The notes: generated by a model from the letters alone, not told the origin. A DNA stretch of 64,000 nt from an uncultured Candidatus Saccharibacteria bacterium (GCA_964520225.1 CAZFNV010000004.1:14520-78519), one strand, 5' to 3'; positions 993 through 24,129 are shown, numbered from the stretch's first letter. Made by a program: numbers and translations.

Positions 993-1002
993 AGTCTAAA
1001 AA

Positions 1003-1482
1003 TTATGGGCACACTGTAGCCCCTGCACTCATAGCTGTCGTGCCTATTTTTGTCGCTGCCGTAGAGTCAATGCAGATATATTGAGTTGCGTCTTCCTTAA
1101 GCTGAACCTGAGCTGCCCATGCTCCTACACTACTGCCCGCAGCACGAACAGGTGATATCTGAGCCAGATAGGCAAGAATTGCCTGGATATTTGAGTTTGC
1201 AGAAGCCCAAGTGTTATTGCTAGTAAATAAGTTATTGAAAGAATTGCCATTGTTGATGCCATAGAGTTCAGCTTCGGAGCGGAGAGAAGTCATTTGTGTT
1301 TTTATCGCTGAGTCTTCACCTTTCCTCCTAGCGCTAGTCAGCATTCCTACGACTACAGTGGCTAAAATACCTATAATGGCTACGACAACCAAAAGCTCTA
1401 TGAGGGTGAACCCGCCTCCCTTTGGGGTCACACCAAATTTTGGTGTGCGGGTAAAGCCTTTATTTTGTTTTAAATAGTTCAT
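1003..1482 (-). CDS. Type IV pilin-like protein (paralogue 2)
   Basis: KGFTLIELLVVVAIIGILA N-terminal methylation motif. The C-terminus ends ...ATVCP and carries a Cys pair. Confidence 0.8.
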   Translation of the reverse strand: MNYLKQNKGFTRTPKFGVTPKGGGFTLIELLVVVAIIGILATVVVGMLTSARRKGEDSAIKTQMTSLRSEAELYGINNGNSFNNLFTSNNTWASANSNIQAILAYLAQISPVRAAGSSVGAWAAQVQLKEDATQYICIDSTAATKIGTTAMSAGATVCP

Positions 1483-1538
1483 AAATTAAACGAGATCGCA
1501 TTATTGTAATATCTGAATTATATCATATAAAGACAAAT

Positions 1539-1572
1539 AAAAACCACTCCGACCTAAGCCGGAGTGGTTTTT
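1539..1572 (-). terminator. Rho-independent terminator after the major pilin gene
   Basis: 8-bp stem ccactccg/cggagtgg with an 8-nt loop, flanked by A and T runs. It lies immediately 3' of the pilin ORF on the minus strand. Confidence 0.5.
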
Positions 1573-1593
1573 ATAAGACAAACCAGTTAACCA

Positions 1594-2001
1594 CTAAGGG
1601 CAAACTGTTCCTGTTCCCAGGTCAGCAGCTGTTTGCTTTGAAGCACCAGTTGAATCTACGCACCAGAATTGACCTGCTGTTTTTAGAGCCACACCAGCAG
1701 CCCACGCAGAAGCGCTGTCGTTACAATCTGCAGTAGTGCCGCTCGCAGAACCAGCAGCAGCCACAGCAGCAGTCACGGTAGCGTTTGTACAAACATCATC
1801 ATAATCTCCGTCTGTGTCATATACCAACTCAGCTTGCGCGCGAACGTTTGCTAAGTTTGCTTTGATAGCAGCATCTGCGCCCTTGTTACGAGCGGAGTTA
1901 AGTGATGCAAGCACCACAGAAGCCAAAATACCGATGATAGCCACCACAACCAAAAGCTCTATCAATGTGAAACCTTTTTTAAGATTCATTTTCATAACCA
2001 A
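1594..2001 (-). CDS. Type IV pilin, probable major pilin
   Basis: KGFTLIELLVVVAIIGILA prepilin motif. Small Ala/Thr/Gly-rich globular domain with two Cys pairs, ending GTVCP. It is followed by its own terminator. Confidence 0.8.
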   Translation of the reverse strand: MVMKMNLKKGFTLIELLVVVAIIGILASVVLASLNSARNKGADAAIKANLANVRAQAELVYDTDGDYDDVCTNATVTAAVAAAGSASGTTADCNDSASAWAAGVALKTAGQFWCVDSTGASKQTAADLGTGTVCP

Positions 2002-2137
2002 TGATAATTTATAAAATTAATAATATTTATAATTCGACTTATTATTATACTTAAGCCAATTATACCATAGCCCACAATACCGCAAGCAAGTTATCCACAG
2101 ACGAGCCGTGCAGGCCAATCATCGCGAAGGTCCTATT

Positions 2138-3346
2138 TTACAAGATTCCTCCAGCCAAGTTGTAAATAGGTACCAATATAGACACTAGTAGTAAGCCGAC
2201 GCCTAGACCTAAAACCACTATCATAACCGGCTCGATAAGACCGACAAGGGTATCTACGGCATCATCCACCTCACGTTTATAGAAGTTGGTTAAGGTATTC
2301 AATATTACCCCGAGCGAACCCGTTTCCTCCCCCACCTTTATCATTTGCACCATTATAGCTGGTAGGCGGTCTGGATACTTGGCAAAGTTCACCGAAAGCG
2401 CAAGACCGGATTTGACTCCGTCCGTAACATCTTTGAGAATATTTTTATAAACATAGCTCCCCACCACTTCAGCGGTAATGTCGATCGCCCTGATTATCTG
2501 TACCCCTGAGGTAAGCATGATGTCTAGGTTGTCCGCAATACGAGATAAGTAAAGTTGTTTATATAGATTTCCCACATAAGGAATAGACAAGCGCACTCTA
2601 TCTAGATACATCTTGCCTTCTTCGGTAACAGCCATGCGCCAGAGCCAAAAACCAAGCAGAATCAAAAAGACAAAGAAGAAAATACCGTAGTTAACGAAAA
2701 GATCAGATATGGTTATAACTATTTTTGTATATACCGGAACTTCCTGCCCGGAATCTAATATGATTGCAGAGAGTTTCGGGATAACAATACCGAGCATAAG
2801 ACTCATCACCACGAAGAATGTAAAGATAACGAAGGCGGGATATATAAGTGCATTCTTGGTCTTGCTAGTAAGCGCGTACTGGCGATCTAGATATTCGGCA
2901 AGGTTTAGAAATATTTGATCGAGCTTACCTGTCTCCTCTCCAACTTTGACCATATTTAAATAGAAGTTAGAGAAAATATCCGGGTGTTTAGAAAGCGCGC
3001 CGGAAATAGATACGCCGGCCTTGAGGTCGTCACAGACTTGGTTGAGCTTACGTTGCAAAAACTTATTTTCAGAATTGTCGGCAAGCATCGTGAAAGCTTT
3101 CAAGGCAGAAACTTGAGCTTTAAACAACGTAGCAACCTGTCTTGATAAAATGACAACTTCTTTCCCGGAGACGCTTTCAAAGAAAGACATCTGCCATACA
3201 GATTTCTGCTCCGCAACTTCGTCGATAGACAAAATGACCAATCCGCGTCGCTGAAGACCGCTGATAGCCATGTCACGACTAGGCGCGTCTATTTCTCCGC
3301 TTTTGTTTATCCCCTCTCCATCTACTGCTTTGTATTGAAATAGCAT
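2138..3346 (-). CDS. pilC: Type IV pilus inner-membrane platform protein PilC (GspF family)
   Basis: Duplicated T2SS-F domains with 3 TM segments. About 400 aa, positioned between pilT and the pilins. Confidence 0.85.
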   Translation of the reverse strand: MLFQYKAVDGEGINKSGEIDAPSRDMAISGLQRRGLVILSIDEVAEQKSVWQMSFFESVSGKEVVILSRQVATLFKAQVSALKAFTMLADNSENKFLQRKLNQVCDDLKAGVSISGALSKHPDIFSNFYLNMVKVGEETGKLDQIFLNLAEYLDRQYALTSKTKNALIYPAFVIFTFFVVMSLMLGIVIPKLSAIILDSGQEVPVYTKIVITISDLFVNYGIFFFVFLILLGFWLWRMAVTEEGKMYLDRVRLSIPYVGNLYKQLYLSRIADNLDIMLTSGVQIIRAIDITAEVVGSYVYKNILKDVTDGVKSGLALSVNFAKYPDRLPAIMVQMIKVGEETGSLGVILNTLTNFYKREVDDAVDTLVGLIEPVMIVVLGLGVGLLLVSILVPIYNLAGGIL

Positions 3347-3353
3347 AAAATTT

Positions 3354-4412
3354 TTACATCATTCGCTCTAGGCCTTTAGGATTCAAAGAATATAAGTGAG
3401 CGCTCTCAATCGATATTTCTCCCGCTCGCACAAGCTCCATCAGCGAGTGGTTGAGGTCGATCATCCCAGATTCTGAACCTGTTTCTATAACTACGTCTAT
3501 CTCATGGGTGCGCTTCTCGCGGATTAGATTTGCTACAGCGTTGTTGTTAAGTAGTAACTCATACGCTGGCACAAGGCCACCAGCGATGCGCGGTATCAAT
3601 CTCTGAGAGAGTATACCCAACAAGCTCGAAGAGAGCTGGGCGCGTATTTGATTCTGCTGGTCTCCCGGGAAAGAATCAATGATGCGGTCAATGGTTTGAG
3701 ATGCGTTGTTGGTATGAAGCGTTGAGAACACGAGGTGCCCCGTTTCCGCAGCCGTAACTGCTGTAGCTATGGTCTCTGGATTACGCATCTCACCTATCAT
3801 TATCACATTCACGTCTTCACGAAAAACTGATTTCAGTGCCACATGAAAATCTTTGGTATCAATACCGACTTCTCGCTGATTGATAATGGATTTGTTCGGT
3901 GTATACACATGTTCGATAGGATCCTCGATAGTCATTATGTTGCGAGTCTGCTCATTGTTGATCAAGTCAATCATCGAAGATATGGTGGTTGACTTACCTT
4001 GCCCCACTGGACCAACCACCAAGAAAAAGCCTTGTTTCTTGCGTGATATTTCTGCCAATATTGGAGGTAGCCGTAACTCTTTAAGAGTTTTCACTGGGGG
4101 TATGAGTCGAAGTGAAATATTAGCTAGACCTTTCTGGAAAAAAGCATTACCCCTGAGTCTAGCTTGCCCTTTGAAGTCATATGAGAAATCCGCTTCTTTC
4201 TCTACTAAAAACGTGTTTACTTTTTCTTCGCCGATAAACTCCTGCAAGATACCCAGCACATCTTCGTGGGTAAGCGCTGGATGTTTGACTAAGAAAATAA
4301 GTTCACCCTCAACACGCACTGCTGGTGCACGCCCTGCGCCTAAGTGCAAGTCAGACCCTCCCTCACGGATAACTATTAAAATAAGTTCTTCTAATTTTTG
4401 TTTGTAATCCAT
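3354..4412 (-). CDS. pilT: Twitching-motility retraction ATPase PilT
   Basis: Walker A GPVGQGKSTT, Asp box and His box of secretion ATPases. About 350 aa and lacks the N-terminal GSPII_E_N domain. Confidence 0.85.
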   Translation of the reverse strand: MDYKQKLEELILIVIREGGSDLHLGAGRAPAVRVEGELIFLVKHPALTHEDVLGILQEFIGEEKVNTFLVEKEADFSYDFKGQARLRGNAFFQKGLANISLRLIPPVKTLKELRLPPILAEISRKKQGFFLVVGPVGQGKSTTISSMIDLINNEQTRNIMTIEDPIEHVYTPNKSIINQREVGIDTKDFHVALKSVFREDVNVIMIGEMRNPETIATAVTAAETGHLVFSTLHTNNASQTIDRIIDSFPGDQQNQIRAQLSSSLLGILSQRLIPRIAGGLVPAYELLLNNNAVANLIREKRTHEIDVVIETGSESGMIDLNHSLMELVRAGEISIESAHLYSLNPKGLERMM

Positions 4413-4414
4413 AT

Positions 4415-4822
4415 TTATTGAATCTGCTCTTTATTTATTTTGGTTGACAATATATCTAACACCTGACCTATAACTTCAGCGGGTGTGGAGTTAGCTTTAA
4501 CAATATACCCAGCCACGCCGAGCGCGGCACCTCTCGCAATATCGGCTTGTTCGTGCTTATTGGACAAAACTAGCTTAATTGAATTTGATAACAATTTATC
4601 CTGACTGAGTTTCTCCAGCATCTCAAAACCATCCATTTCCGGCATTAAAATATCTGTCATGATTACATCAGGTGTTAAGCCTTCTTTGATTTTTTTGATA
4701 GCCTCTGCCCCATTTAACGCTGTATGAACAGCGAAATTATTCTGGCTGAATTTAAGCGCGTACATATCTAGCAGAAAGCTGTCGTCATCAACTATTAGAA
4801 TTGTCTTTTTCTCTCCTTCCAT
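4415..4822 (-). CDS. Single-domain response regulator (CheY-like REC)
   Basis: ILIVDDD...D...MTDILMPEMDG...K: acidic pocket, phospho-acceptor Asp and conserved Lys. Only 135 aa, with no output domain. Confidence 0.8.
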   Translation of the reverse strand: MEGEKKTILIVDDDSFLLDMYALKFSQNNFAVHTALNGAEAIKKIKEGLTPDVIMTDILMPEMDGFEMLEKLSQDKLLSNSIKLVLSNKHEQADIARGAALGVAGYIVKANSTPAEVIGQVLDILSTKINKEQIQ

Positions 4823-4839
4823 GTACTCCTTATTATATC

Positions 4840-6591
4840 TTATTCGTTCTCGTTGGTAAAATTATATATTTCTCTGTGTGGTATTATGCCTGACATAGCT
4901 TTCAGTATCGCATCCTCTCGCATCGTAAGCATACCCTTACTTCGCGCAACCTTGTAAATGGCTTCATTGGTGGGAGTTTTGAGTATTGTCGCCGCCATTT
5001 CTTTGTCAACTTTAAACATTTCAAAAATAGCCACTCGCCCCTTAACCCCAGACGGGCACTCAGGTGACGGTACGGCTTCGAATATTTCGTTTTTAATTGG
5101 TAGATTCTTACGGAACTCTTCAGGTAAGTCTCTGAATTGATCTTCGATCTGCATTTTCAGACTCTCGTCAATTGGAACTGACTTTTTAGATGTTGGATAT
5201 ATGGTCTGCGCCAATCTTTGCGCTACAGAGAGAATAAGTGTAGGCGCGATAAGATAAGGGTCCACTCCCATATCTACCAATCTCGGTACAGCACCTATCG
5301 CGTTGTTGGTGTGGAGTGTTGAAAAAACAAGGTGGCCAGTAAGAGCTGCTTGGATAGCGAGCTGAGCTGTCTCTTTGTCTCGTATTTCTCCAATCATCAC
5401 GATATCTGGGTCTTGACGAAGAATAGAACGAAGTCCAGTAGCAAAAGTATAGCCTATTTCTGGTACAACTTGCGACTGGTTTATGTTTGGTATGTGATAC
5501 TCTACCGGATCCTCTAGTGATACTATGTTATTCTTTTCCTTATCTAGCTCGTTGATCATGGAATATAGAGTAGTTGATTTACCCGACCCGGTCGGACCAG
5601 TAACAAGTATAATACCGTAAGGTTTAGCTATAGCACTTCGAATCATATTTAAATTGACCTCTGAAAGCCCTAACTCGTCCAGAGGCTTAACCCCTTTATC
5701 GGAATCTAAAATACGCAAAACCACCTTCTCGCCATAGTAAGCAGGCATAGTAGAAACACGAAAATCAATCTTGCGTCCATCAATGTTGGTGCTAAAGGAT
5801 CCGTCTTGAGGTTTGCGTTTTTCGTCTAGACGTAACTTGGCTAGAATTTTTATGCGCGCGACCACCCCGCTGTATACATTTAGAGGCAGAACAATCCCCG
5901 TGTATAGCGAACCGTCTACACGGTAACGCACTTTCACCTTATCTTCCCCCGCCTCAATATGTATGTCGGAACAGTTGCCTTCGATGGCATTACGCAGAAT
6001 AACTGCCACTATCTTGATTACCGGCGCGTCTTCTACCATTTTTGACTCCTCGCCAGGCTTGATATCTTTGAGTTCCTTACTAAGATTCTCCTCGTTCAAA
6101 CCCTTAAGTTCGATAGAGCCAGTATCCTCATCCATCTCGTCTAGTGCTTGGTCAATCTGATTATTTGTGCCCTTATAAGTTTCCATTACGCTCTCATAAG
6201 CGCTCTTGGTGATCAGAAATATCTTGAACGGTATGCCGATCTTGGAAGATATGAACTGTACCGCATCCATAGCCTCTGTACTGCTCGGGTCCACAACACC
6301 GATAGAAAGAACACCGTCCTTAAGCTCAATCGGAACTACTCCATAATGCCTAGCCGAATCTTCAGAAATATATTTTAGCACTCCGAAAGACATCGTTTGT
6401 AGGTCGATTTTTTTTGTTGGAATTTTGAAAAAAGCACCCTTGGCATCAAGTATTGCGTCTTCAGGGACACCAGAAGCTACCAAGGCTTCGTCTATGTCGC
6501 CCCCATATCTTTTGTCCGCACGGGCCCTAATCTCACTGATCTGCCCTTCGGTGAGTAAACCTTTTTTGCTTAATTCTTCTAAAAAACTCAT
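4840..6591 (-). CDS. pilB: Type IV pilus assembly ATPase PilB (GspE family)
   Basis: N-terminal GSPII_E_N-like domain, Walker A GPTGSGKSTT, a CxxC-type tetracysteine region and the His box. Confidence 0.9.
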   Translation of the reverse strand: MSFLEELSKKGLLTEGQISEIRARADKRYGGDIDEALVASGVPEDAILDAKGAFFKIPTKKIDLQTMSFGVLKYISEDSARHYGVVPIELKDGVLSIGVVDPSSTEAMDAVQFISSKIGIPFKIFLITKSAYESVMETYKGTNNQIDQALDEMDEDTGSIELKGLNEENLSKELKDIKPGEESKMVEDAPVIKIVAVILRNAIEGNCSDIHIEAGEDKVKVRYRVDGSLYTGIVLPLNVYSGVVARIKILAKLRLDEKRKPQDGSFSTNIDGRKIDFRVSTMPAYYGEKVVLRILDSDKGVKPLDELGLSEVNLNMIRSAIAKPYGIILVTGPTGSGKSTTLYSMINELDKEKNNIVSLEDPVEYHIPNINQSQVVPEIGYTFATGLRSILRQDPDIVMIGEIRDKETAQLAIQAALTGHLVFSTLHTNNAIGAVPRLVDMGVDPYLIAPTLILSVAQRLAQTIYPTSKKSVPIDESLKMQIEDQFRDLPEEFRKNLPIKNEIFEAVPSPECPSGVKGRVAIFEMFKVDKEMAATILKTPTNEAIYKVARSKGMLTMREDAILKAMSGIIPHREIYNFTNENE

Positions 6592-6599
6592 AGTTAAAT

Positions 6600-7154
6600 T
6601 TATTGCTGAGGTGCTGGCGCAGCTGGAGGTACTGGGGATACCGGTTCAGTGGTTCCAGATGGTGTAGTCGGAGTATCTGTGTTTTCTTCCTCAACTCCTG
6701 CAGCAGGAACAAGATCTTCTGGCATTGATTCTGGCTCAAGACCCGTGGTTTCGCTCGGGACTTGCGGCAAAGGTGGCAAAGTCTCAAAAGGAGAAATCTG
6801 TGAACTGTCAGTACCGAACTGTGCAAAAGGATTAGGACGCCCTTCGCTCCCCTCGGGGAATATAACTATAGTCGAATCTTGTAAACTCGTAAAAGCCACA
6901 TCAGAAAAAATACCGTCGTTCAGCCTGATATTTTTCACACTAAGCAAAAGGGACAGAAAATCTTGCGCCAGGGGGTCATCATTGGAAACTCGAAGCGGAA
7001 TGGGGTTAGATGTGGAGTTAACGCCACCGTCAGTGGGCGCATTTCCGCCAGAAGATATAAGACTGGTTGCTGGACCAGAATTTTGAACAAAGTAAAAGTA
7101 CCCGCCTGTCACCGCAAGAGCTATTATCAAAAAAATTAAAAAGTTTCTAATCAT
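6600..7154 (-). CDS. Pilus-operon membrane protein (PilP-like position), Pro/Thr-rich C-terminus
   Basis: N-terminal TM helix, a small domain and a PT-rich tail. The PilP-like assignment is by operon position only. Confidence 0.35.
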   Translation of the reverse strand: MIRNFLIFLIIALAVTGGYFYFVQNSGPATSLISSGGNAPTDGGVNSTSNPIPLRVSNDDPLAQDFLSLLLSVKNIRLNDGIFSDVAFTSLQDSTIVIFPEGSEGRPNPFAQFGTDSSQISPFETLPPLPQVPSETTGLEPESMPEDLVPAAGVEEENTDTPTTPSGTTEPVSPVPPAAPAPQQ

Positions 7155-7157
7155 TGC

Positions 7158-7745
7158 TTAATTCTTTAACCAGTAGGTTTTAATTTTATAAGCAAAACGG
7201 TAAACTTCCGTAGGCGAACCAGGGGTTGTGCTACTGACAGAAGAAAACTGAAGAGAAGCAATGTCGACTATGCGCAGATTATTCTCCAGACTTTTTGTAA
7301 AATTCACTAGATTATTATAACTACCGGTCACAGAGAACTCTAGCTCCCAAGCCTCGTAGCCCTTGCCTCCCTGTTCCACTCTGGCAGAGCTATTCGCAAT
7401 ACCGCTTGCTGGAGCCTCTTCCTTCACTGTACTGTATTGCACATCTTTGAGCACCATATTGTACGGCAACGCCAACTTCTCTATCTCAAGCACAAGACGA
7501 ATGTTATCCACACTGTCTGGCAACATCCTTTTTATCTTGGCTAAATTTTCTGCGCTAATAGTGTTATATTTTGCTGCTAATTTGTCTCGCTCATTCTCTA
7601 GATCTTTAGAATTGCTTAAAGCTTCGTTGTAAGCAGACACTTTATCTTGCAGGCCTTGTATGTCACCATAAAATGGCATTGCAAACATCGTAAAAACTCC
7701 GACAGCTAGAGCTATTAAAATAATTGAGGTGAGATAACGAAACAT
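7158..7745 (-). CDS. PilO-like pilus assembly protein
   Basis: N-terminal TM helix, then a coiled coil, then an alpha/beta domain. Operon position lies between the PilN-like and PilP-like genes. Confidence 0.5.
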   Translation of the reverse strand: MFRYLTSIILIALAVGVFTMFAMPFYGDIQGLQDKVSAYNEALSNSKDLENERDKLAAKYNTISAENLAKIKRMLPDSVDNIRLVLEIEKLALPYNMVLKDVQYSTVKEEAPASGIANSSARVEQGGKGYEAWELEFSVTGSYNNLVNFTKSLENNLRIVDIASLQFSSVSSTTPGSPTEVYRFAYKIKTYWLKN

Positions 7746-7748
7746 ATA

Positions 7749-8357
7749 TTAAAAGCTTATACCGTTTTTAGTAAGAATATTCTGCCTGTAGTTTATAAAA
7801 CTCTCATCGACCGAAAAACTAAGATCGAAACGCACGTTCCCCTTCTCATCTAGCTGAAGATTCGAAAAAATCGGGTTAATAAATTTCTTATTTGCCGAAA
7901 ACAAATCCGCCTGGAGAGCCACACTTCGATAGCCTATAGCCACGCCTTTCATATTTACAGTCACTCTCGGAACAGTTTCGGTCGGCTCGCTATAATCAAA
8001 AGAAGTAAAACGCACGGTCTTCATGGTTGTATTAGATAACTCTTCGAATATCGGAGTAACCATCGTATGCCTCGATAAAATTTCGCTCGCGGCGTTGAGG
8101 CGCCTATCTAGCTCCTCAAGCTCGGCTATTTTTGCAGGCTCGAAACGATTCTTAGCACGATTTAAATTGCCTTCCATTTCCGTAATATTTTTTGCCAAGA
8201 CGCCTTTATAAAAATATAGTCCGCCAGTTCCTATCACCACCGCAAACAAAATAAGCATTCCAACCACGGTCGAAAAACCAATGGAGCTCGGCATAGCTAC
8301 GCGCTCTTTGACTATAGTTCGTTTAGGTATAAATGATGTTTGGAAGTTTTGCTCCAT
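7749..8357 (-). CDS. PilN-like pilus assembly protein
   Basis: Short cytoplasmic N-terminus, one TM helix, coiled coil. Immediately downstream of pilM. Confidence 0.5.
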   Translation of the reverse strand: MEQNFQTSFIPKRTIVKERVAMPSSIGFSTVVGMLILFAVVIGTGGLYFYKGVLAKNITEMEGNLNRAKNRFEPAKIAELEELDRRLNAASEILSRHTMVTPIFEELSNTTMKTVRFTSFDYSEPTETVPRVTVNMKGVAIGYRSVALQADLFSANKKFINPIFSNLQLDEKGNVRFDLSFSVDESFINYRQNILTKNGISF

Positions 8358-8379
8358 CCTTACATTATATTATCTCAGT

Positions 8380-9594
8380 TTATTGTAATTTACGCAATGC
8401 TAATCCTATCGCTACGGCAAATTCTGGACCAACATTGTCTAAAACCTTGCCTAAAAAGGCTGGTGCGCCGACTTTATTAAACGGATGGCCGACACTAACT
8501 TCCGCGCGGAAGTTGCTTGTGGCCACTTCTTTGAGGCCTTTCATGAGCGCGCCACCTCCAGTAAAAATAACTTTGCTGATTATGCGATTATGCTTCTTCT
8601 CGTAATTCAAAAGTACATTGTTGGCTTCGTTGAATATATAATCTGTATGGAGTTCTATGGTTTCCGCAAGATTTTTATCTCCAGGATTACCAAGAAGCCC
8701 GAACTCTTTTTTCATTTTTTCAGCTTCAGCAAAAGGAACACTGAGAGACTTGGCTAAAGACTCGGTAATGTCTGCCCCGCCCCGCTCAATCGAGTGAAAA
8801 CTTTTTAACATTCCGAATTCAACTATAGAAACTTTGGTGCGTGAAGCTCCAAAATCAATCAGCATAACTGGAGACAGTTCATGCTCGAAGTTAGAACGAA
8901 TCGACGAAAAAACTTCAATCTCAAAGAATGAGGCTTCCTGCTTGCTTTGCGATAGTATCGAGCGATACCGAGCGGCGGCATCATTCTGCGTAGCCACCAC
9001 CAGAACACTGGTTTTCTCTTTAGAAGACCCGCTCGTGTCTTGCGTAACCCCTGTATTCATTTCTTCAAAAGAAAGTTCTTTTTTAGGAAAAACAAAATAG
9101 TCGAGCGACACCTCACTGATAGGCACAGGAATGTAACGTCGCGCCTCTGTCGGAACAATGGTAGCTATCTCCTCTTCTTTTATTTGTGCTGGAAGCTCGA
9201 GATTGAAAATCAAACATAGTTGCACCGGAATGGCAACAGCAAGCCCCGCAGGAGTAGCGCCGGACTGTTTAAGCACTTCGCTGAGAGCTTCAGCCGCCTT
9301 CTCTACGGGAAGGTTCGTGGTTGTACCAGCTGGTAAAGACGAATAAGGGCCAAGAGCAATAGCTCCATAGGTTTCTAATACCACTCTTCCGCTTTTCTTT
9401 CTGATCTCTACGATCTTTATCGCTGAAGAACCGATATCGACACCGATAGCGATTGTATTATTATCTGATGCGCCCGAAACACTAGCCACCTTGCTAAAAA
9501 TGCCTTTAAATGGATTATTCATGTCCTGATTGTTCCGCTTCATGCTAAAATAGCTATTAGTAATTATAGCATATATGGGTTTATTAGACACCAT
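8380..9594 (-). CDS. pilM: Type IV pilus assembly protein PilM (actin-like ATPase fold)
   Basis: IGVDIGSSAIKIVEI N-terminal phosphate-1 motif and FtsA/PilM-like architecture. The true start is probably an internal Met (MKRNN or MNNPF). Confidence 0.8.
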   Translation of the reverse strand: MVSNKPIYAIITNSYFSMKRNNQDMNNPFKGIFSKVASVSGASDNNTIAIGVDIGSSAIKIVEIRKKSGRVVLETYGAIALGPYSSLPAGTTTNLPVEKAAEALSEVLKQSGATPAGLAVAIPVQLCLIFNLELPAQIKEEEIATIVPTEARRYIPVPISEVSLDYFVFPKKELSFEEMNTGVTQDTSGSSKEKTSVLVVATQNDAAARYRSILSQSKQEASFFEIEVFSSIRSNFEHELSPVMLIDFGASRTKVSIVEFGMLKSFHSIERGGADITESLAKSLSVPFAEAEKMKKEFGLLGNPGDKNLAETIELHTDYIFNEANNVLLNYEKKHNRIISKVIFTGGGALMKGLKEVATSNFRAEVSVGHPFNKVGAPAFLGKVLDNVGPEFAVAIGLALRKLQ

Positions 9595-14962: not shown

Positions 14963-16804
14963 CTAAAAAACGAACGAGAAGAATGACGACAACTGCCGAA
15001 GAAACAAGGCAATATAGTTTATGGTCTGGGAGAAAATATTTTTAGAGCTTGCGGGATAAGTTTCTGAATCTGGGCTATCGAATGTGTTATCTGTGTTCCC
15101 GACATCTATTTTATTTTCTATATTTTGCGAGAAAGCGCCGAGAACTTGTCCGGGGGTATTTGTATTGGTTCGTGTCACCCCCGGACAAGGTTCGCCCGTA
15201 AGCGAGCTAAACAAGTGACCTGGCTGGCAGGGCGCTGATTCCTCCTCGAATGGCGCAGGAGGTTCTTCGGCTTCAGTGGTTTCCGAATTAGCACCACTAA
15301 CTTTGTTATCTGTTTTAGGTTTTGAAACAGATTCCAGAATTTTATCCCAAGGCTTACCTAGGGCAGCAGGTATAGCATAGCTAGTCGCCCAGATACGATT
15401 CTCGAGGGTTTCTCCTGACGACAACATAGCACCATCTTCTGCTTGTAATGTTCCCAAATAGTCGAGCCCACTTTTACCACCTTTAACCCAAGATGTAACT
15501 AAGGCGGCTTCAGCCTGCATAGCCCAACTTGTAGAAGAAACATTACCCCAACCACCATCTACCCCCTGAGAATTCTCTAGATATGAGGCTGCCTTTACGA
15601 GCGCGTCCGACACACCACTCACTCCACTAAAAGGTTTGAGCGCCATCACAGCCGCCGCAGTCACATCAACACTATTTTCCCACGACCCGCCAGAATTTTG
15701 CTTACTCAAAATGAATTCAATGCTTTTTGCAATCATTATATCTTCTGCCTCATAACCCGCATTTTTTAATGGAATAAGGGCAAAAATATCATCGTTCACC
15801 AGATCAGCGTCTCCGAATTGCACACCATCGAATTCTTGAACTATAGCCTCGATGTAATTTGTTCCTTCAAATGAATACGGGTTCTCGTCAAGCGCGAGTA
15901 GGGCCATAGCCCGCCTTTCATTGTCGGTAAGAAGTGAGCTGACAGAATTGTTAGCTTTTAGATATTCTAGAGTAGAATTGACGCTCTCCCCTGAGACATT
16001 TACTGAAGCTAATGCTAAAGCTACCCAGTCAGTATATAAGTCAGCGCCACCAAAAGAACCATCTACATTTTGCACGCTCTTTAAATAAGCAACAGCCAGA
16101 GACACACTAAAGGATGTCGAGGGTGGTGTTGTAGAAGATCCGCCACTGCCACCACCTCCTCCAGTCGTAGATGTTTCTTCGATTTCTTCGGTTTCTTCTG
16201 GTTCTTCTTCTACTGGTTCTGAAACGGGGCTATTGAATGACGGGTCTAGAGACAAGACAGTGAGATCGAGTCTGGAGTTAAGTAGTGTTTCCTCAAACGT
16301 AACCGGATCAAAAGCAGTCAAAACAAGAGATACTACATCCCCTACTTCGAGCACCAAATCAGAGACTCCCACACTAGCACTTACTCCATTCTTTTGCAGT
16401 TGCCAGTATGCGTTCTCCTCTGTAATTTCATTTACACTGTTTACAAAAAGTCCGAATCCAAAATCTGCAAATTCTATACTATCGACGAAACCTTCTTCCA
16501 GAGCTTCAGCTAGCGCACAAATTGCGAGATATTCGGCGAAAGTTGAAATAGGAAAAATGTGAGTACCCCCTGAGGCGTCTTCTAATATACACCCATTCGG
16601 AAGCACAATACTTTCTGTGACGAGGAACAATGGCTCCGCCTCTTCTTCGACAAATTCTTCTTCTACCTCAATCTCCTCTTCCGGAGTAGTCTCTTCAGCA
16701 TTAGGTTCTTCAGGCACTTCGTCTACAGCAAAAGTACGAAGAGGTGCATTGATAAACAATGCAACAACAAAGAAACCGGCTAATAATTTTAGAAAATTTT
16801 TCAT
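14963..16804 (-). CDS. Secreted two-domain protein: DUF4430-like beta-domain plus prenyltransferase/squalene-cyclase-like alpha/alpha-toroid repeats (transcobalamin-like architecture)
   Basis: Signal peptide, then an acidic E-rich linker. A DUF4430-like segment follows (...FGLFVNSVNEITEENAYWQLQKNGVSASVGVSDLVLEVGDVV...), then a G/T/P linker. Four QW-type repeats come last (QNVDGSF, QNSGGSWEN, SQGVDGGWGN, LQAEDGAM). Confidence 0.55.
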   Translation of the reverse strand: MKNFLKLLAGFFVVALFINAPLRTFAVDEVPEEPNAEETTPEEEIEVEEEFVEEEAEPLFLVTESIVLPNGCILEDASGGTHIFPISTFAEYLAICALAEALEEGFVDSIEFADFGFGLFVNSVNEITEENAYWQLQKNGVSASVGVSDLVLEVGDVVSLVLTAFDPVTFEETLLNSRLDLTVLSLDPSFNSPVSEPVEEEPEETEEIEETSTTGGGGGSGGSSTTPPSTSFSVSLAVAYLKSVQNVDGSFGGADLYTDWVALALASVNVSGESVNSTLEYLKANNSVSSLLTDNERRAMALLALDENPYSFEGTNYIEAIVQEFDGVQFGDADLVNDDIFALIPLKNAGYEAEDIMIAKSIEFILSKQNSGGSWENSVDVTAAAVMALKPFSGVSGVSDALVKAASYLENSQGVDGGWGNVSSTSWAMQAEAALVTSWVKGGKSGLDYLGTLQAEDGAMLSSGETLENRIWATSYAIPAALGKPWDKILESVSKPKTDNKVSGANSETTEAEEPPAPFEEESAPCQPGHLFSSLTGEPCPGVTRTNTNTPGQVLGAFSQNIENKIDVGNTDNTFDSPDSETYPASSKNIFSQTINYIALFLRQLSSFFSFVF

Positions 16805-16805
16805 A

Positions 16806-17285
16806 TTAATCTTTGAGTTTCCATTCTATGTGGTCACCCGCTTTTAGCTTGTAATTAGAAATGCCTACGTTCGACTCAGCTCCGTTTATATAAAAAAATA
16901 AAAATTTTCCGTTTCCTTCTTTTATATTCTCAATCTCGGTAACAAAAAATCCCAAAACTGGGAACTCCTTTCCCGTAAAATGAATCGTTCCTTCTAAACG
17001 CATTCTATTCATAGCGCTCTCTAGCGTCTCGCCAGGATTAAAATAAAGTTCCAGATTTTTATCACCGATTTTAAAGGTGGTTCGTTCTTGGTAGATAGTT
17101 TTCTCTTCTGATGCTATCGGCGACTGCGGATTTGAAGCGGTTATATCTTCTATTTTCTCAACAACACCCGTGGAAGCTGATTGATATAGAACATTTTCAG
17201 GCTGAATATCCTCTACTGATGCCAATCGCCATACTAATATGGTCGCAACAAATAAAACTATAAAGATTTTTGTGAATGTTTTCAT
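16806..17285 (-). CDS. DUF4430 (transcobalamin beta-domain-like) secreted/anchored protein
   Basis: N-terminal TM/signal. The C-terminus carries the DUF4430 signature GFFVTEIENIKEGNGKFLFFYINGAESNVGISNYKLKAGDHIEWKL. Confidence 0.6.
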   Translation of the reverse strand: MKTFTKIFIVLFVATILVWRLASVEDIQPENVLYQSASTGVVEKIEDITASNPQSPIASEEKTIYQERTTFKIGDKNLELYFNPGETLESAMNRMRLEGTIHFTGKEFPVLGFFVTEIENIKEGNGKFLFFYINGAESNVGISNYKLKAGDHIEWKLKD

Positions 17286-17289
17286 GGAA

Positions 17290-17470
17290 AATAAAAAAAC
17301 TCCTTCCGAGGAGTCTTGGTGCTTTTAAGCATCTCGAGAGATGCATAAAAACATTTTCCTGCTCGGGATCAAATCGTATTTGGTAGTCGGACTTGTCTCT
17401 CGTGAGACACACCGTAGCGGCACTGTGGAGGATTCACACCTCACTTCCCCAAAAACGATTATTTAATTTT
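17290..17470 (-). promoter_or_regulatory. Cobalamin riboswitch-like leader (short Cbl-II-like aptamer plus terminator expression platform)
   Basis: Minus strand reads AATCGT..GGGGAA..GGTGTGAATCC..ACAGTGCCGCTACGGTG..AAGTCCGACTACC..ACGATT, with a P1 helix AATCGT/ACGATT. These resemble the cobalamin-riboswitch core (GGGAA, GGTG.GAATCC, GC.ACGGT, AAGCCCGA.GACC). A CTCCT/AGGAG hairpin plus U7 follows, 12 nt before the ATG. Confidence 0.55.
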
Positions 17471-17520
17471 ATGGAACACTTATAATCCTATACCAACCCT
17501 TTCCGTAACGCAAATGTCCC

Positions 17521-18162
17521 TCAAGCATACTCCGGCGGACTCTCTTTTAGCCCTGACACGTGATTCACATATCGCGCGAGGGCATAAAAAACACTTGAGA
17601 GACGATTCAAAAACTGAATTTCCGCCTCCCCTGCTCGCGCCTCCTCGCCAGCTTCCCGCATGCGCACCAGCGCTCGCTCAGTCTTCCTCGCGAGAGTACG
17701 CAGTACATCTAAATAGGCCGACAACTCGCTACCGCCAGAAAGTAGGAAGGTTGTGATCGGCGGAAGAACTTCTTCTACTTGCGCTATTATATCTTCTAAG
17801 AAGGTTACATTTTCTGGTTTTATACTTTTATCGCTTCCGGCCACACGCGCCTGTAAAGTAAAAAGCAGATTTTGAATACTGGTGAGAATGTCGGCAATTT
17901 TTTGCTCGTTAGCACCACTCTTTAAAGTCGCCCGCTCCTTTCCGGCAACAACCTTACAAAGCCCTGTCATAGAGTTGAGCTCATCTAGCGCGCCAAGTAC
18001 CTCAAACACGGCATCGCCCTTAGAAATTCTGACACCTTGTGGTGTGTCGAATAATTTCGTTGTACCTTTGTCGCCCTTTTTGGTGTAGAGCATATTTTGA
18101 ATATTACAAACCGCAAATTTAGGCAAGCAATTTTTTATTATCAAATGCAAACACTTGCGCAT
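17521..18162 (-). CDS. ATP:cob(I)alamin adenosyltransferase, PduO type
   Basis: MLYTKKGDKGTT... N-terminal motif of PduO/MMAB-type adenosyltransferases. The likely true start is that Met, at about 18093. Confidence 0.8.
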   Translation of the reverse strand: MRKCLHLIIKNCLPKFAVCNIQNMLYTKKGDKGTTKLFDTPQGVRISKGDAVFEVLGALDELNSMTGLCKVVAGKERATLKSGANEQKIADILTSIQNLLFTLQARVAGSDKSIKPENVTFLEDIIAQVEEVLPPITTFLLSGGSELSAYLDVLRTLARKTERALVRMREAGEEARAGEAEIQFLNRLSSVFYALARYVNHVSGLKESPPEYA

Positions 18163-18664
18163 TTTTGCTTTTGGTAAGCAGGTATCTGTCTATTAGTGGC
18201 GAGAGAAAGAAAGCTAAACCGATGTTGCCGGCCAGATGAAGTAGCGTGAAAGGTATCTGACCATAAAACGCCCCCACAAAAGACTGACCGAAGAATATCG
18301 GACCGATAGTGAGCCCAGTCATAGCGTCAAAAAATAGCGTGCCCAGGACTGCAAAATACACATAGTTACGCCTATTCGCTTCGCGATTCTTGAAAAAAGC
18401 ATAAGCGAAAACACCGAGCAGCCCGTAAACTATTCCAGTAACAAGCGTCCATACGCCAACTCTGGCAGTTATAAAATCAAAAACCGCCAAGCTTAAAAAG
18501 CCAAAGAAGAAAGCTGATGTTCCGCCGAAGTTACGCGCGATTGGCATCTGCGCTGCAAGAATCGGCTCTAAGTTCGGTGCGCGGAATGGAATCAATCGCA
18601 GTAAAAGGCAAAACGCGAAACACCCTGCTAGCTTTAGATAGTTTTGGGATAAATTTTTAGACAT
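18119..18664 (-). CDS. Small polytopic membrane protein, possible ECF-type S-component (cobalamin-specific CbrT-like?)
   Basis: About 180 aa with 5-6 predicted TM helices. It lies between nrdJ and the adenosyltransferase. The functional assignment is by context only. Confidence 0.35.
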   Translation of the reverse strand: MSKNLSQNYLKLAGCFAFCLLLRLIPFRAPNLEPILAAQMPIARNFGGTSAFFFGFLSLAVFDFITARVGVWTLVTGIVYGLLGVFAYAFFKNREANRRNYVYFAVLGTLFFDAMTGLTIGPIFFGQSFVGAFYGQIPFTLLHLAGNIGLAFFLSPLIDRYLLTKSKNAQVFAFDNKKLLA

Positions 18665-18673
18665 CAGAATAGT

Positions 18674-21025
18674 TTATATCTCACAAACCCCAGAAACACA
18701 AGCAAATTCTTTAGCACCCTGAGTGTGGTCTTCTGATTCATACTGAGACAGTTTAGAGAAATCCAATTTTCCAATAGCACGAGCTCTGCGCTCGTATTCT
18801 TCTTTAGATATTGCCTCGTATGGCGCGAGTTTGTACACATGTTCTGAGCGAGGTAAAAAGGAAAGTCCGCCCACGCTGTTCCAGTTTTCATAAACGAAGT
18901 TACCTACCGCCAGCCACTCGTCTGCGCCGACGTATATAGTTGCAGATGGATTGTGCTCCACAAAGTTTTCTTTTAAGCGCTTCCATTCTGTTAAAAGATC
19001 AATTGCTGATATGTCATCCTTGAAAACTGCACCATCTGGAGCCTTCACTGGGAATTCTAGAACGAAAGTAGTTGCTGTCGCCTCTGACTGACCTACCTCT
19101 GGAAAACAAGGGACTCCTTGATCACGAGCCATCTTTAGTAGTGTGTCGGTGTGCGAGATGCGAACTCGGCGGATGAAATACGGCGCAAACCATGGATGCA
19201 TGCCAGAACCCACTCCGAGAAGCTGACCTGAGTTACCGTGAGGCTTCACGCAAGTGATGGCTGTGGACTGATTGATACCAAAACGCTTTGCGTATTTTTT
19301 ATTAACTGCAATTCCATGCTCTCGCAAAGCATTTAACATTTTGTCTGTTCGAACTCCTTTGTTGTCGTAGTATCCTGTGAGAGATACACCCAGCAACCTC
19401 TCTTCATTACAGTTATCCTTCCACTCCTTGGAAAGAAAACCGAAGTTAGTGAGAGTGGACTGATACGTGCCGAGTATTGTTGCTAGCTCCATTTTTCGTT
19501 TTAAGGTTGCTTCAGTATCGTCAGGACGAATAACTATAGAGGTAAGGTTGCAGAATTGTTTTGAGCGCAAGTAAATTTCTCCGCAAGGATTCACGCCTAT
19601 CTGGCGGTGGTCCTTGATCTTCTCCCAGCGACGAGCTGGCACTTGGCTCTCTAGCCCCCCACGGTTGAATATTCCGCGCTCTCCTGAGCGAGATTTTACA
19701 AGCGCGGTCCACTCTTCTAGAAACTCTTCCGCAGAAGGTTTAGCATTATAAACTGCTGAGTTGTTGGCCATAGAGCGCTGTGGTTCAGCTACATAAAATT
19801 GTCCTTTCTTTGCATCACGCATCTCTATATCCTCAAGCTCTGACAGAGATATAAGCGCGCTTCTGCGAACGCCTCCAGCCACCACGATCATTCCTATCTG
19901 GCATATTATGTCGTGCATATCAAGGTTGGAAAGTCTGCGCCCCTGCTTGGATAAAATCTTTTGTCGTGAAAATTGCATGAGATCCATGAGCGGTTGCGGA
20001 CCAGAAGCTTTACCTCCAGCAGTTTCTAGGCGCGAGCCTGCCGGACGAATGCGAGAATAATCAAACTCCACATCTTTGCCGTCGAACCATGCATCGAGTC
20101 CATATATATAAGCTTTCGCCCAACCTTCTTTGCTGTCTTCAATAATATATTTTGGTAATTTTTCTCCGCTTTGAACTTTAATCTGCGGGAACTTCTGCAC
20201 ATTTTCCCACTCGACGGCAAAACCCACACCACAACCGCACATAGAGTTGTACATTATCTCGCCCAGATCTTGAGTGCATGTAGGCGCAATATAAGAACAA
20301 TTATACGCCCACACATTAGAATTGCGACAAGCTTTGCCTGACGACCATAGCAATCGCATTGATGGACACACATCTTGATTTAGAATTCCTTCGCGTAGAT
20401 CGCTATATTCCTTCGCGGTAAGCTTGTCCCCGAGATTTTCTTTCATGTATTCCATGTAGCGGTCTATAGTTTCGATCCAAGTCTCACGCCTACCCAACTC
20501 TGGTATCCAACGCGCGTAGAATTGGTAGAAAATATATTCAGAATACGCGCTACGGAAATATTTACTAGACTCTTCGACTGCTTTGCGCACCGCTTCCGGC
20601 ACTGGACCGAAGCTTTTGCGAATCTCGGAACGCCTGTTTCTATATAAAATGTATTTTTTGGCAGTATTTTCAAAACCTTTGCGCATTAATTCCTTCTCCA
20701 CAAGGTCTTGGGTCATCTCCACAGTAGGCAGGAATACTGCTTTTTTGTTCTCTACCACTAGATCATTCCTGAGTTTCAATAAATCTGCAAAAACACTCTC
20801 CGCCACTGCCTTTGCTTCCGCTTCATTACCTTCACCACTTGCTTCGAAAGCCTTAGATACAGCGCGCACAATACGAGATAGATCAAAAGGCACCACTTCT
20901 CCGGTGCGACGACGCATTGATTTGATTTTTGATAGATCGACTTTGGAAACTTTGGATGCGGTTTTTATTTTTGTGGGCATAAAAATTAAAATTAGTTTTG
21001 GACTATCATTATACACGTTTCGCAT
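18674..21025 (-). CDS. nrdJ: Class II (adenosylcobalamin-dependent) ribonucleotide reductase NrdJ with N-terminal ATP-cone
   Basis: ATP-cone (VVPFDLSRIVRAV), RNR large-subunit barrel and C-terminal Cys pair. The likely true start is MPTKIK at about 20980, with a TATAAT -10 just upstream. Confidence 0.9.
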   Translation of the reverse strand: MRNVYNDSPKLILIFMPTKIKTASKVSKVDLSKIKSMRRRTGEVVPFDLSRIVRAVSKAFEASGEGNEAEAKAVAESVFADLLKLRNDLVVENKKAVFLPTVEMTQDLVEKELMRKGFENTAKKYILYRNRRSEIRKSFGPVPEAVRKAVEESSKYFRSAYSEYIFYQFYARWIPELGRRETWIETIDRYMEYMKENLGDKLTAKEYSDLREGILNQDVCPSMRLLWSSGKACRNSNVWAYNCSYIAPTCTQDLGEIMYNSMCGCGVGFAVEWENVQKFPQIKVQSGEKLPKYIIEDSKEGWAKAYIYGLDAWFDGKDVEFDYSRIRPAGSRLETAGGKASGPQPLMDLMQFSRQKILSKQGRRLSNLDMHDIICQIGMIVVAGGVRRSALISLSELEDIEMRDAKKGQFYVAEPQRSMANNSAVYNAKPSAEEFLEEWTALVKSRSGERGIFNRGGLESQVPARRWEKIKDHRQIGVNPCGEIYLRSKQFCNLTSIVIRPDDTEATLKRKMELATILGTYQSTLTNFGFLSKEWKDNCNEERLLGVSLTGYYDNKGVRTDKMLNALREHGIAVNKKYAKRFGINQSTAITCVKPHGNSGQLLGVGSGMHPWFAPYFIRRVRISHTDTLLKMARDQGVPCFPEVGQSEATATTFVLEFPVKAPDGAVFKDDISAIDLLTEWKRLKENFVEHNPSATIYVGADEWLAVGNFVYENWNSVGGLSFLPRSEHVYKLAPYEAISKEEYERRARAIGKLDFSKLSQYESEDHTQGAKEFACVSGVCEI

Positions 21026-21159: not shown

Positions 21160-21233
21160 TCCACCCTCTTGGACTCGAACCAAGGACCCCAGAGGTATAA
21201 GCTCTGTGCTCTAGCCAGCTGAGCTAAGGGTGG
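21160..21233 (-). tRNA. tRNA-Ile with anticodon UAU (reads AUA); CCA not encoded
   Basis: Reverse complement CCACCCTTAGCTCAGCTGGCTAGAGCACAGAGCTTATACCTCTGGGGTCCTTGGTTCGAGTCCAAGAGGGTGGA. Anticodon stem CAGAG/CTCTG, loop CTTATAC, discriminator A. Confidence 0.7.
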
Positions 21234-23224: not shown

Positions 23225-23255
23225 AAGCGCCTTTTGAGCGCTTTTGTATGTCGAG

Positions 23256-23647
23256 TGGAGATGGGGGAAATCGAATCCCCGTGCAGAAGGTTCTTACTAA
23301 AAAGTCTACATGCTTAGCGCGCTTCAAAGTTTAAATTAAAAAATTAAGAAACGAGCCAAATATTTTTTAATCGATCCCAAAGTTTTCGTGAAATACTTGG
23401 GCGAGTATTTCCTTATCCCGATAATATTACACTTCTACTCATATATCGGAAGTCTATGAGAGAAATGCCGGACTTAGGCTTACGCGAAAGCCGGAGCGAA
23501 AGCAAAATCATTCATACCGAAGTATGGGGATTCTGTTTTGCTGTTAGTCAATTTTGCAATTAACGTTTTGAACGAAGTTTAGCGAGTTTACGTCCATGCT
23601 CGACATGCATTTTAGGAAATAGCCGACTGTCTATGCCTGGCATCCCC
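23256..23647 (-). ncRNA. ssrA: tmRNA (ssrA), standard one-piece
   Basis: 5' GGGGATG pairs with 3' CATCTCC to give a G3:U70 Ala identity pair. T-arm is GGGGATTCGATTTCCCC. An internal frame ...GCA AAA ... GAT TTT GCT TTC GCT CCG GCT TTC GCG TAA gives a tag ending -FAFAPAFA. The gene lies immediately downstream of smpB. Confidence 0.7.
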
Positions 23648-23652
23648 AAATT

Positions 23653-24129
23653 TTATTCTTCTCTTTTCAAAGTTCTCCTGATGTCTCGATCAGTCTCGCG
23701 CTTCTGTATGCTTTGTCTTTTGTCGCGAGTTTTCTTGCCTTTCACCAACACAAGCTCAACTTTAATTTTACTATTTTTATTATACACTGAAATAGGCACT
23801 ATTGTCAAACTCCTATTCTTTTCATTGCCCGCCAGTTCAACAATCTCCTTTTTGGTGAGCAATAGTTTCCTGTTCCGAAGCGGATCATAGTCTGCCCCTG
23901 CATTTTTGGGCTGATAAGCCGGAACGTTGGCGTTTATTAAATATGCTTCCCCGCCCCGAACTATTACAAAAGCCCCCTCGAGAGACATCCTCCCGGCGCG
24001 CACAGATTTTACCTCGAGACCCAAGAGCTCGATACCCGCCTCGTACTTTTCTAGTATTTCATAGTCAAATCTAGCTTTTCTATTTTCAGCATAATTCGCC
24101 ATACTCGTAATATTAGCACAAATATTCAC
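23653..24129 (-). CDS. smpB: SsrA-binding protein SmpB
   Basis: ENRKARFDYEILEKYEAGIELLGLEVKS... matches the SmpB family. The likely true start is MANYAEN. Confidence 0.9.
   Translation of the reverse strand: MNICANITSMANYAENRKARFDYEILEKYEAGIELLGLEVKSVRAGRMSLEGAFVIVRGGEAYLINANVPAYQPKNAGADYDPLRNRKLLLTKKEIVELAGNEKNRSLTIVPISVYNKNSKIKVELVLVKGKKTRDKRQSIQKRETDRDIRRTLKREE

Follow-up and report, generated by a model that had tools for sequence, protein, structure and literature searches.

The window analysed here is a stretch of 64,000 nucleotides (nt) from an uncultured Candidatus Saccharibacteria bacterium (GCA_964520225.1 CAZFNV010000004.1:14520-78519; positions are counted from its first nucleotide), and the subject of this work is a pair of minus-strand genes within it that follow a cobalamin (B12) riboswitch and encode putative extracellular corrinoid-binding proteins of 159 and 613 amino acids (aa). 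An earlier interpretation, here referred to as the sequence-only reading, had described the pair as an undescribed cobalamin-capture module made up of secreted, transcobalamin-like proteins. The two open reading frames (ORFs) that it proposed were recovered in an ORF listing at 16806 to 17285 (159 aa) and 14963 to 16804 (613 aa). The genes are adjacent and do not overlap; at their junction, GAT TAA T ATG, the stop codon of the 159-aa gene is followed by 1 nt and then by the ATG of the 613-aa gene. From 5' to 3', the leader, the small gene and the parts of the large gene are as follows.

17349 to 17472, minus strand: adenosylcobalamin (AdoCbl; cobalamin) riboswitch aptamer in the leader of the pair (RF01482, 48.9 bits, E = 5.3e-8)
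17286 to 17348, minus strand: expression platform with an invariant UCCCGAGCAGG element, a small hairpin, and a terminator-like hairpin plus a U-run that ends just before the ATG
16806 to 17285, minus strand: 159-aa membrane-anchored or secreted stand-alone SLBB/DUF4430 protein, the small partner (PF14478, E = 1.3e-13)
16727 to 16804, minus strand: signal peptide of the 613-aa protein, residues 1 to 26 (hydrophobic residues 3 to 27, ending ...RTFA/VD)
16628 to 16726, minus strand: acidic linker, residues 27 to 59 (52% Asp plus Glu, no Lys or Arg)
16244 to 16627, minus strand: SLBB/DUF4430 beta-grasp domain, residues 60 to 187, a homologue of the transcobalamin beta-domain (by PF14478, the structural model, and the SLBB profile)
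16106 to 16243, minus strand: disordered Glu- and Gly/Ser/Thr/Pro-rich linker, residues 188 to 233 (65% Gly/Ser/Thr/Pro; predicted local distance difference test [pLDDT] score below 50 at model residues 132 to 163)
15335 to 16105, minus strand: 12-helix alpha6/alpha6 toroid with four QW-like repeats and an invariant N337-D338-D339-I-F-x-L, residues 234 to 490
14963 to 15334, minus strand: low-complexity tail, residues 491 to 613 plus the stop codon, with the Cys-bracketed motif CQPGHLFSSLTGEPC and a hydrophobic/amphipathic C terminus

The five parts that had been assigned to the large protein, from the signal peptide to the toroid and in that order, are all real as judged by composition, hydrophobicity, and an AlphaFold model, while a sixth part, the 123-aa C-terminal tail with its Cys-bracketed motif and hydrophobic end, had been missed. 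The small protein begins with a hydrophobic segment (residues 1 to 27), and similar signal peptides are found at all N termini of the relatives of the 613-aa protein.

The strongest evidence for reading the two genes as a capture pair comes from comparative genomics. A scan of species-representative genomes provided six loci and a scan of metagenome contigs provided 80, and 72 distinct loci, the window included, remained after the removal of duplicates. These loci were annotated locally with hidden Markov models (HMMs) for five proteins and with a strict B12-box pattern, and loci negative for the pattern were rechecked with Rfam. The small DUF4430 gene is located immediately before the large gene in 56 of the 59 loci with enough upstream sequence, and the gaps between the two genes range from -65 to +127 nt, with most of them below 30 nt. 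Furthermore, a cobalamin-clan riboswitch is present on the coding strand directly upstream of the pair in 59 of the 62 loci with at least 350 nt of upstream sequence (55 by the strict B12-box pattern and 4 by Rfam), and the co-occurrence that the sequence-only reading had proposed to survey is borne out. The B12-box pattern was matched 67 times on both strands of 655 kb, every time at the position before the pair. The relatives that carry names belong to Nomurabacteria, Paceibacterota, Minisyncoccia, and Saccharibacteria, all of them lineages of the Patescibacteria or candidate phyla radiation (CPR). Two small DUF4430 genes precede the large gene in some of the loci among L009, L019, L025, L031, and those of several P00xx homologues.

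Within the window, a focused scan of positions 17150 to 17700 matched the RF01482 model over its full length (model positions 1 to 149) at 48.9 bits, where the gathering score is 50. The alignable leaders of relatives scored above gathering, with 53.0, 54.7, 39.5, 35.6, 34.2, 54.6, and 47.4 bits. Rfam spreads such orthologous leaders over RF01482, RF01689, and RF00174, yet they can be aligned with each other, and in an alignment of the window leader with those of five relatives that pass gathering, the B12-box core GCCGCUACGGU...AGUCCG is invariant. The leader has a minimum free energy of -57.8 kcal/mol and is more stable than shuffled sequences (z = -3.15). Directly before the start codon, a terminator-like 9-bp hairpin followed by a U-run is located at 17317 to 17296 on the minus strand (AAGACUCCUCGGAAGGAGUUUU+UUUAUUUUCC). 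The UCCCGAGC element on the 3' side of the aptamer is invariant in six of six aligned leaders (L001 to L006); as UCCCGAGC(AGG), it is found in the window at 17349 to 17363 (minus strand), just 3' of the aptamer core, and it is possibly a kissing-loop or expression-platform strand. A chance riboswitch was considered as an explanation and rejected.

Both proteins contain the DUF4430 domain that the sequence-only reading had seen in them, with scores above the PF14478 cut-off of 23.8 bits in each case: residues 85 to 158 of the 159-aa protein match with 51.6 bits (E = 1.3e-13), and residues 112 to 160 of the 613-aa protein match with 33.4 bits (E = 6e-8). By Pfam, all 52 relatives of the large protein have the domain as well. 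When PDB sequences were searched with single sequences, the large protein matched only squalene-hopene cyclase and the small protein matched nothing meaningful, and profiles were needed. A profile of the SLBB domain gave nine matches at an E value of 1 or below among 177,635 PDB sequences, and these were exclusively a DUF4430 structure or C-terminal domains of B12 carriers (3u7z [DUF4430], E = 3e-4; haptocorrin, E = 0.012; intrinsic factor, E = 0.016; transcobalamin, E = 0.03). Likewise, the SLBB region of the family profile of the large protein matched the haptocorrin beta-domain with an E value of 7.6e-5, and a GL.V.SIN.I....YW.l motif is common to the SLBB domain and the beta-domains of the B12 carriers. 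The small proteins of related loci match the SLBB part of the large-protein profile with E values of about 1e-8. In the model, a helix at residues 35 to 44 is followed by strands at residues 51 to 55 and 60 to 65 and then by three further strands, an arrangement compatible with a beta-hairpin insert after the helix in the SLBB domain.

For the toroid, an AlphaFold2 model of residues 60 to 500 of the large protein was built with 52 relatives. In the model (mean pLDDT 89.3), a beta-rich domain at the N terminus is joined by a disordered linker to a barrel of 12 helices (barrel pLDDT of 95 to 98), and with this, the alpha6/alpha6 barrel fold that is a feature of the PF01122 (Cobalamin_bind) family is present. 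A Foldseek comparison with the PDB matched the terpene cyclase 8pak (E = 7e-8) and haptocorrin 4kki (E = 7e-6), and transcobalamin and intrinsic factor were also among the matches, so that the structural comparison proposed for the sequence-only reading did return the animal B12 carriers. At the level of sequence, SQHop_cyclase_C matches residues 346 to 425 of the 613-aa protein (E = 3e-9, 36.6 bits) and is found in 51 of the 52 relatives; Cobalamin_bind is found in 27 of them (E of 0.1 or below, best 1.7e-8), and TED_complement and prenyltransferase models also match relatives. One homologue of 698 aa, encoded at 6263 to 8359 of locus L088, matches both SQHop_cyclase_C and Cobalamin_bind, which shows that the family includes members with a clearer kinship to the eukaryotic B12 carriers than the window protein has.

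In sequence as in fold, the toroid is matched best by class II terpene cyclases, and we considered that it might be a surface domain that binds or modifies lipids or terpenoids, for instance to scavenge host isoprenoid lipids that CPR bacteria cannot make, with the DUF4430 domains serving as general modules for binding soluble ligands or the cell wall. The matches of relatives to TED_complement and prenyltransferase models would fit this, as would the four QW-type repeats of the sequence-only reading, which proved to be conserved across the 52 relatives as Q-x-x-x-G-[SG]-[WF] (Q245/G249, Q369/G373/W375, Q413/G417, and Q454/G458); Q-x-x-x-G-x-W repeats and an alpha/alpha barrel are shared with squalene-hopene cyclase, drimenyl diphosphate synthase, and MstE. 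However, the DxDD motif of class II cyclases is not conserved, as the 52 relatives have an aligned D332-x-[N17/D16/S9]334-L335, and this argues against an enzymatic cyclase role. The two-barrel (beta-gamma) architecture of these cyclases is also absent, its place being taken by one barrel of 12 helices and about 257 residues, and NCBIfam cyclase models score 18 to 28 bits on the 613-aa protein against cut-offs of 320 to 850. In addition, the protein is secreted, its toroid is in every case joined to an SLBB domain of the transcobalamin type, and control by a cobalamin riboswitch would make no sense if the function concerned lipids. On the grounds of the DxDD motif, the single barrel, the secretion, the SLBB fusion, and the riboswitch, we rejected the terpenoid or lipid reading and give it next to no credence. 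Because DxDD is not conserved while N337-D338-D339-I-F-x-L, invariant across the 52 relatives, and the four repeats are kept, we take the toroid to be a non-catalytic domain fused to a transcobalamin-type beta-domain.

The C-terminal tail of the 613-aa protein has a probable role in surface retention. Its Cys-bracketed motif CQPGHLFSSLTGEPC (15185 to 15229, minus strand; residues 526 to 540) occurs once in the window and has no Pfam match, and a tail consensus, CPxGDLFSxxTGQxC, was found in 24 of 120 homologues; the motif may form a small module, closed by a disulfide bond, that serves surface attachment or recognition. Among the homologues, some C termini (P0002 to P0115) are transmembrane anchors (..IPIVLGTASGLILLY.AFKFF), and others are amphipathic hydrophobic tails (..NYIALFLRQLSSFFSFVF) like that of the window protein (14966 to 15050, minus strand), which suggests alternative modes of surface retention. 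Some large proteins have two tandem SLBB domains, and many have extra Ig-like surface domains (Big_3, Bact_surface_Ig-like, and HYR).

Upstream of the riboswitch, the following three genes are found on the same strand.

18674 to 21025, minus strand: class II (AdoCbl-dependent) ribonucleotide reductase (RNR) with an ATP-cone, the cofactor consumer (TIGR02505)
18119 to 18664, minus strand: 181-aa membrane protein resembling the S-component of energy-coupling factor (ECF) transporters, a candidate corrinoid importer (PF07155, structural model, and gene linkage)
17521 to 18162, minus strand: PduO-type cob(I)alamin adenosyltransferase, upstream of the riboswitch and outside its control (PF01923, E = 2e-42)

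An AdoCbl-dependent RNR, a PduO adenosyltransferase, and a small membrane protein had been anticipated here; the first two are supported by Pfam and NCBIfam matches, and the third had been undervalued, as it is an S-component-like candidate importer. The RNR matches TIGR02505 (RTPR) with an E value of 1.4e-83, the B12-RNR insertion domain PF21995 with 33.8 bits (cut-off 27), and the ATP-cone with an E value of 4.5e-16, and PduO matches TIGR00636 with 135.7 bits (cut-off 108). With its listed length of 213 aa, the PduO ORF reaches into the end of the S-component gene. However, its Pfam match and its relatives start at MLYT[KR]KGD, and the true start is therefore probably Met24 at 18093, which would give a protein of 190 aa. 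Since the riboswitch is located between pduO and the small gene, it governs the pair and not the RNR, S-component, and PduO genes. Between ftsH and the RNR gene lies a tRNA gene (21160 to 21233, minus strand); the stretch that remains in front of nrdJ is only about 130 nt long, and no riboswitch was found in it. No cob or cbi genes were found in the 64-kb window.

The proposed B12 salvage island has a conserved gene order of nrdJ, S-component, pduO, riboswitch, small SLBB gene, and SLBB-toroid gene. Among the 22 related loci with at least 3.3 kb of upstream sequence, the class II RNR is present in 8, an S-component-like gene in 8, and PduO in 7. In a reverse test that started from four homologues of the S-component chosen solely for their long contigs, all four were located beside nrdJ and were followed by a B12-box and the DUF4430 and toroid pair, with pduO in three of the four. 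The position of the S-component-like gene varies by lineage, being either upstream with nrdJ and pduO, and thus outside the riboswitch unit, or immediately downstream of the large gene and within that unit (compare L046, L057, L077, L083, and L086 with the window).

The 181-aa protein scores 25.0 bits against PF07155 (E = 2e-5), below the cut-off of 26.7, and 43 of 46 sampled relatives match this family at an E value of 0.01 or below (best 1.4e-10); 843 relatives are detectable, mostly in the same lineages. Its model (pLDDT 89.4, predicted template modelling score [pTM] 0.83) has the six-helix S-component fold, and the top 22 PDB matches by Foldseek were all ECF S-components (FolT, RibU, ThiT, and HmpT; TM scores of 0.5 to 0.74), with FolT, RibU, and ThiT as the nearest folds. 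The proven B12 transporter ECF-CbrT of Lactobacillus delbrueckii, a presumed B12 auxotroph, was identified through an nrdJ-cbrS-cbrT-pduO cluster (PMC5997447), and as in that cluster, an S-component with the same fold lies here between an AdoCbl-dependent RNR and PduO. In contrast to CbrT, the CPR S-component has a profile without a sequence match to CbrT and no ECF module nearby, and no transcobalamin-like capture proteins have been reported for CbrT. Neither a CbiO-like ATPase nor a CbiQ-like membrane protein was found in the window or in the annotated related loci, and it is the S-component-like gene that is linked instead. Based on this linkage and on the modelled fold, the 181-aa protein is likely a corrinoid importer.

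We consider it probable that the pair is a riboswitch-repressed cell-surface corrinoid capture module for uptake in Patescibacteria. At low intracellular AdoCbl levels, transcription would read through the riboswitch terminator, a direction of regulation that the class of riboswitch suggests for the RNA elements seen in the leader. Both proteins would then be exported, and the 613-aa protein would be kept at the surface by its C-terminal tail. As the homology of the modules to those of transcobalamin suggests, a corrinoid could be clamped between the SLBB beta-grasp domain and one face of the toroid, with the modules in reversed order and joined by a flexible linker. The 159-aa protein, tethered by its N-terminal helix and a linker of about 55 residues, might supply a second beta-domain or relay the ligand to the membrane, although these details merit less confidence than the core capture claim. 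The S-component-like protein, by its fold and gene linkage, would import the corrinoid, PduO would adenosylate it, and the class II RNR would use the cofactor.

It is conceivable that the pair is related to corrinoids and yet does not perform the first step of import. It could sequester or store them at the surface, in competition with or as piracy against a host and neighbours, or it could handle incomplete corrinoids such as cobinamide or another analogue relevant to the riboswitch, with the S-component acting independently. In line with this, most loci have a riboswitch that governs the pair alone and leaves out the S-component; haptocorrin, which is among the structural matches, scavenges corrinoids broadly (4kkj with cobinamide); and ECF-CbrT also transports cobinamide (PMC5997447). 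However, in at least four loci (L046, L077, L083, and L086), the S-component gene directly follows the large gene inside the riboswitch unit, regulation by an AdoCbl off-switch is typical of uptake and biosynthesis genes (PMC11477304), and no corrinoid-remodelling genes were seen adjoining the pair. We regard a role outside import as unlikely, and we favour capture for uptake.

The proposed device resembles several known systems. With mammalian transcobalamin, intrinsic factor, and haptocorrin (2bb5/2bb6, 2pmv, and 4kki), it shares an alpha6/alpha6 barrel plus a beta-grasp SLBB domain and an extracellular location. However, the mammalian carriers have the alpha- before the beta-domain with a short linker and are soluble, whereas the bacterial protein has the SLBB domain (residues 60 to 187) first, then a disordered linker of about 45 residues and the toroid (residues 234 to 490), as well as QW-like repeats, a surface tether, and a second beta-domain on a separate protein. 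BtuG and BtuH of Bacteroides are surface-exposed, high-affinity B12-capture lipoproteins that are encoded in riboswitch-controlled uptake loci and feed a membrane transporter, and the concept is thus shared. BtuG, however, is a beta-propeller with a fold unrelated to the pair, and it works at the outer membrane with the TonB-dependent BtuB.

The closest precedent is a prediction. Burroughs, Balaji, Iyer, and Aravind defined the SLBB superfamily in 2007 and described bacterial fusions of SLBB and alpha/alpha-toroid domains, with the toroid at either the N or the C terminus, together with a paralogous SLBB partner (PMC1796856). From this architecture, its association with CbiO/CbiQ-type transport genes, and the lack of B12 synthesis in the host organisms, those authors predicted B12 scavenging for the Firmicutes architecture, and they proposed a bacterial origin of the animal carriers (PMC1796856). 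The systems that they described (e.g., Bacillus gi:42782379) have the SLBB domain before the toroid as here, a signal peptide, surface anchoring, and predicted B12 scavenging, and their operons likewise combine an SLBB-toroid fusion with a second secreted SLBB paralogue, a pairing that the loci studied here keep in 56 of 59 cases. Because the SLBB-toroid architecture, the swapped order, and the stand-alone partner were already described in PMC1796856, they are not new, and the module was not "undescribed". The functional reading as a capture pair thus withstood the HMM, fold, riboswitch, and co-occurrence tests, while the claim to novelty did not. The 2007 examples are from Firmicutes and some archaea and usually have CbiO/CbiQ-like ECF genes, whereas the loci described here are from Patescibacteria, are headed by a cobalamin riboswitch that was not discussed there, and have nrdJ, pduO, and a lone S-component-like gene as neighbours. 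Apparently new, therefore, are the patescibacterial lineage, the quantified near-universal riboswitch control, and the association with nrdJ, pduO, and a distinct family of S-components in place of CbiO/CbiQ; no CPR-specific description of such a system was found in the literature. The window pair is a real and well-supported further case of the predicted device, with its function backed computationally, and as a case for a prediction dating from 2007, it will be of little surprise to a specialist.

The only relatives for which genetic data exist are Lsa1839 and Lsa1840 of L. sakei, homologues of the transcobalamin alpha- and beta-domains encoded beside an ECF-type transporter (Lsa1836 to Lsa1838) (bioRxiv 10.1101/864751). 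The sequence-only reading held that no such bacterial system had been functionally characterised; this split homologous pair has in fact been studied genetically, although it was assigned to heme and not to B12. By extension, the window pair could capture heme or another tetrapyrrole, since strains lacking lsa1836 to lsa1840 were impaired in taking up heme, and since docking could place heme between the alpha and beta subunits of homology models (bioRxiv 10.1101/864751). However, what was shown in L. sakei applies to the five-gene cluster as a whole and not to binding by the two proteins, which are separate there, and a context of cobalamin riboswitch, nrdJ, and pduO was not reported for them. 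In the loci studied here, a cobalamin-class riboswitch governs the genes in 59 of 62 cases, the genes lie beside an AdoCbl-dependent RNR and a cobalamin adenosyltransferase, and no heme-related genes were seen in the neighbourhood. A heme function of the window pair is in our view very improbable, and a corrinoid remains the preferred ligand.

Several observations weigh against the corrinoid capture reading. Ligand binding has been demonstrated for no bacterial member, and literature searches returned no functional work on B12 binding by a bacterial DUF4430 protein. In the model, which has a pTM of 0.64 and a disordered linker, closure of the two domains around a ligand is not seen, and because of this pTM value, the placement of the SLBB domain relative to the toroid is undefined. 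In sequence, the toroid is nearer to squalene-hopene cyclase (family profile E = 1e-14) than to the transcobalamin alpha-domain, and Cobalamin_bind (PF01122) scores just 13.0 bits in the window protein (E = 0.05), under the cut-off of 25. Fold scores do not separate terpene cyclases from B12 carriers, and as the alpha6/alpha6 class is common to both, the fold cannot choose between them; the comparison with transcobalamin made in the sequence-only reading thus holds for the fold matches to intrinsic factor, transcobalamin, and haptocorrin, but neither fold nor sequence alone sets the toroid apart from that of a terpene cyclase. The riboswitch of the window itself falls 1.1 bits short of the Rfam gathering score and for this reason was missed in a whole-window scan at gathering thresholds, which returned only a tmRNA and three tRNAs; the cobalamin-riboswitch-like leader of the sequence-only reading was recovered in the focused scan by E value that was needed. 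Lastly, a search of PDB sequences with the profile of the 181-aa protein matched no S-component, CbrT and BtuM included, so that its substrate is assigned from gene linkage only, and no ECF ATPase or T component was found among the ORFs of the 64-kb window, which were searched for Walker A and the LSGGQ ABC signature.

Apart from the salvage island, the window contains a type IV pilus gene cluster at 207 to 9594 (minus strand), with two pilin-like ORFs (1003 to 1482 and 1594 to 2001) that have a G/FTLIELLVV prepilin motif, two Walker A ATPases (3354 to 4412 and 4840 to 6591), and PilM/PilO-like genes identified by Pfam tags on the same contig. A tmRNA (23253 to 23647, minus strand; 113 bits) adjoins smpB (23653 to 24129).

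How B12 is taken up is well known for Gram-negative bacteria (BtuB/BtuFCD) and for a small number of ECF, BtuM, and BacA systems. A bolder proposal, which we put forward tentatively and think doubtful, is that Patescibacteria possess a self-contained B12 piracy system unlike all characterised bacterial importers, composed of a surface-tethered transcobalamin of reversed domain order whose toroid still resembles terpene cyclases, a stand-alone beta-domain relay close to the membrane, and a new S-component family that lacks sequence similarity to CbrT or BtuM and maybe works independently of an ECF module. If this were true, episymbiotic CPR cells would take cobalamin from their hosts, and the family would be a living intermediate in the descent of the alpha-domain of the animal B12 carriers from a prenyl-cyclase-type toroid. 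The CPR loci offer a clean test case, as they combine short domains of high confidence, near-universal riboswitch control, and tight linkage to a class II RNR as the one obvious user of B12, to its adenosyltransferase, and to a candidate importer. Binding by these proteins would bear on the hypothesis of a bacterial origin of transcobalamin and on the heme-versus-B12 question raised by L. sakei, and it would account for the way in which ultra-small bacteria with poor biosynthetic abilities acquire a cofactor that they need for DNA synthesis.

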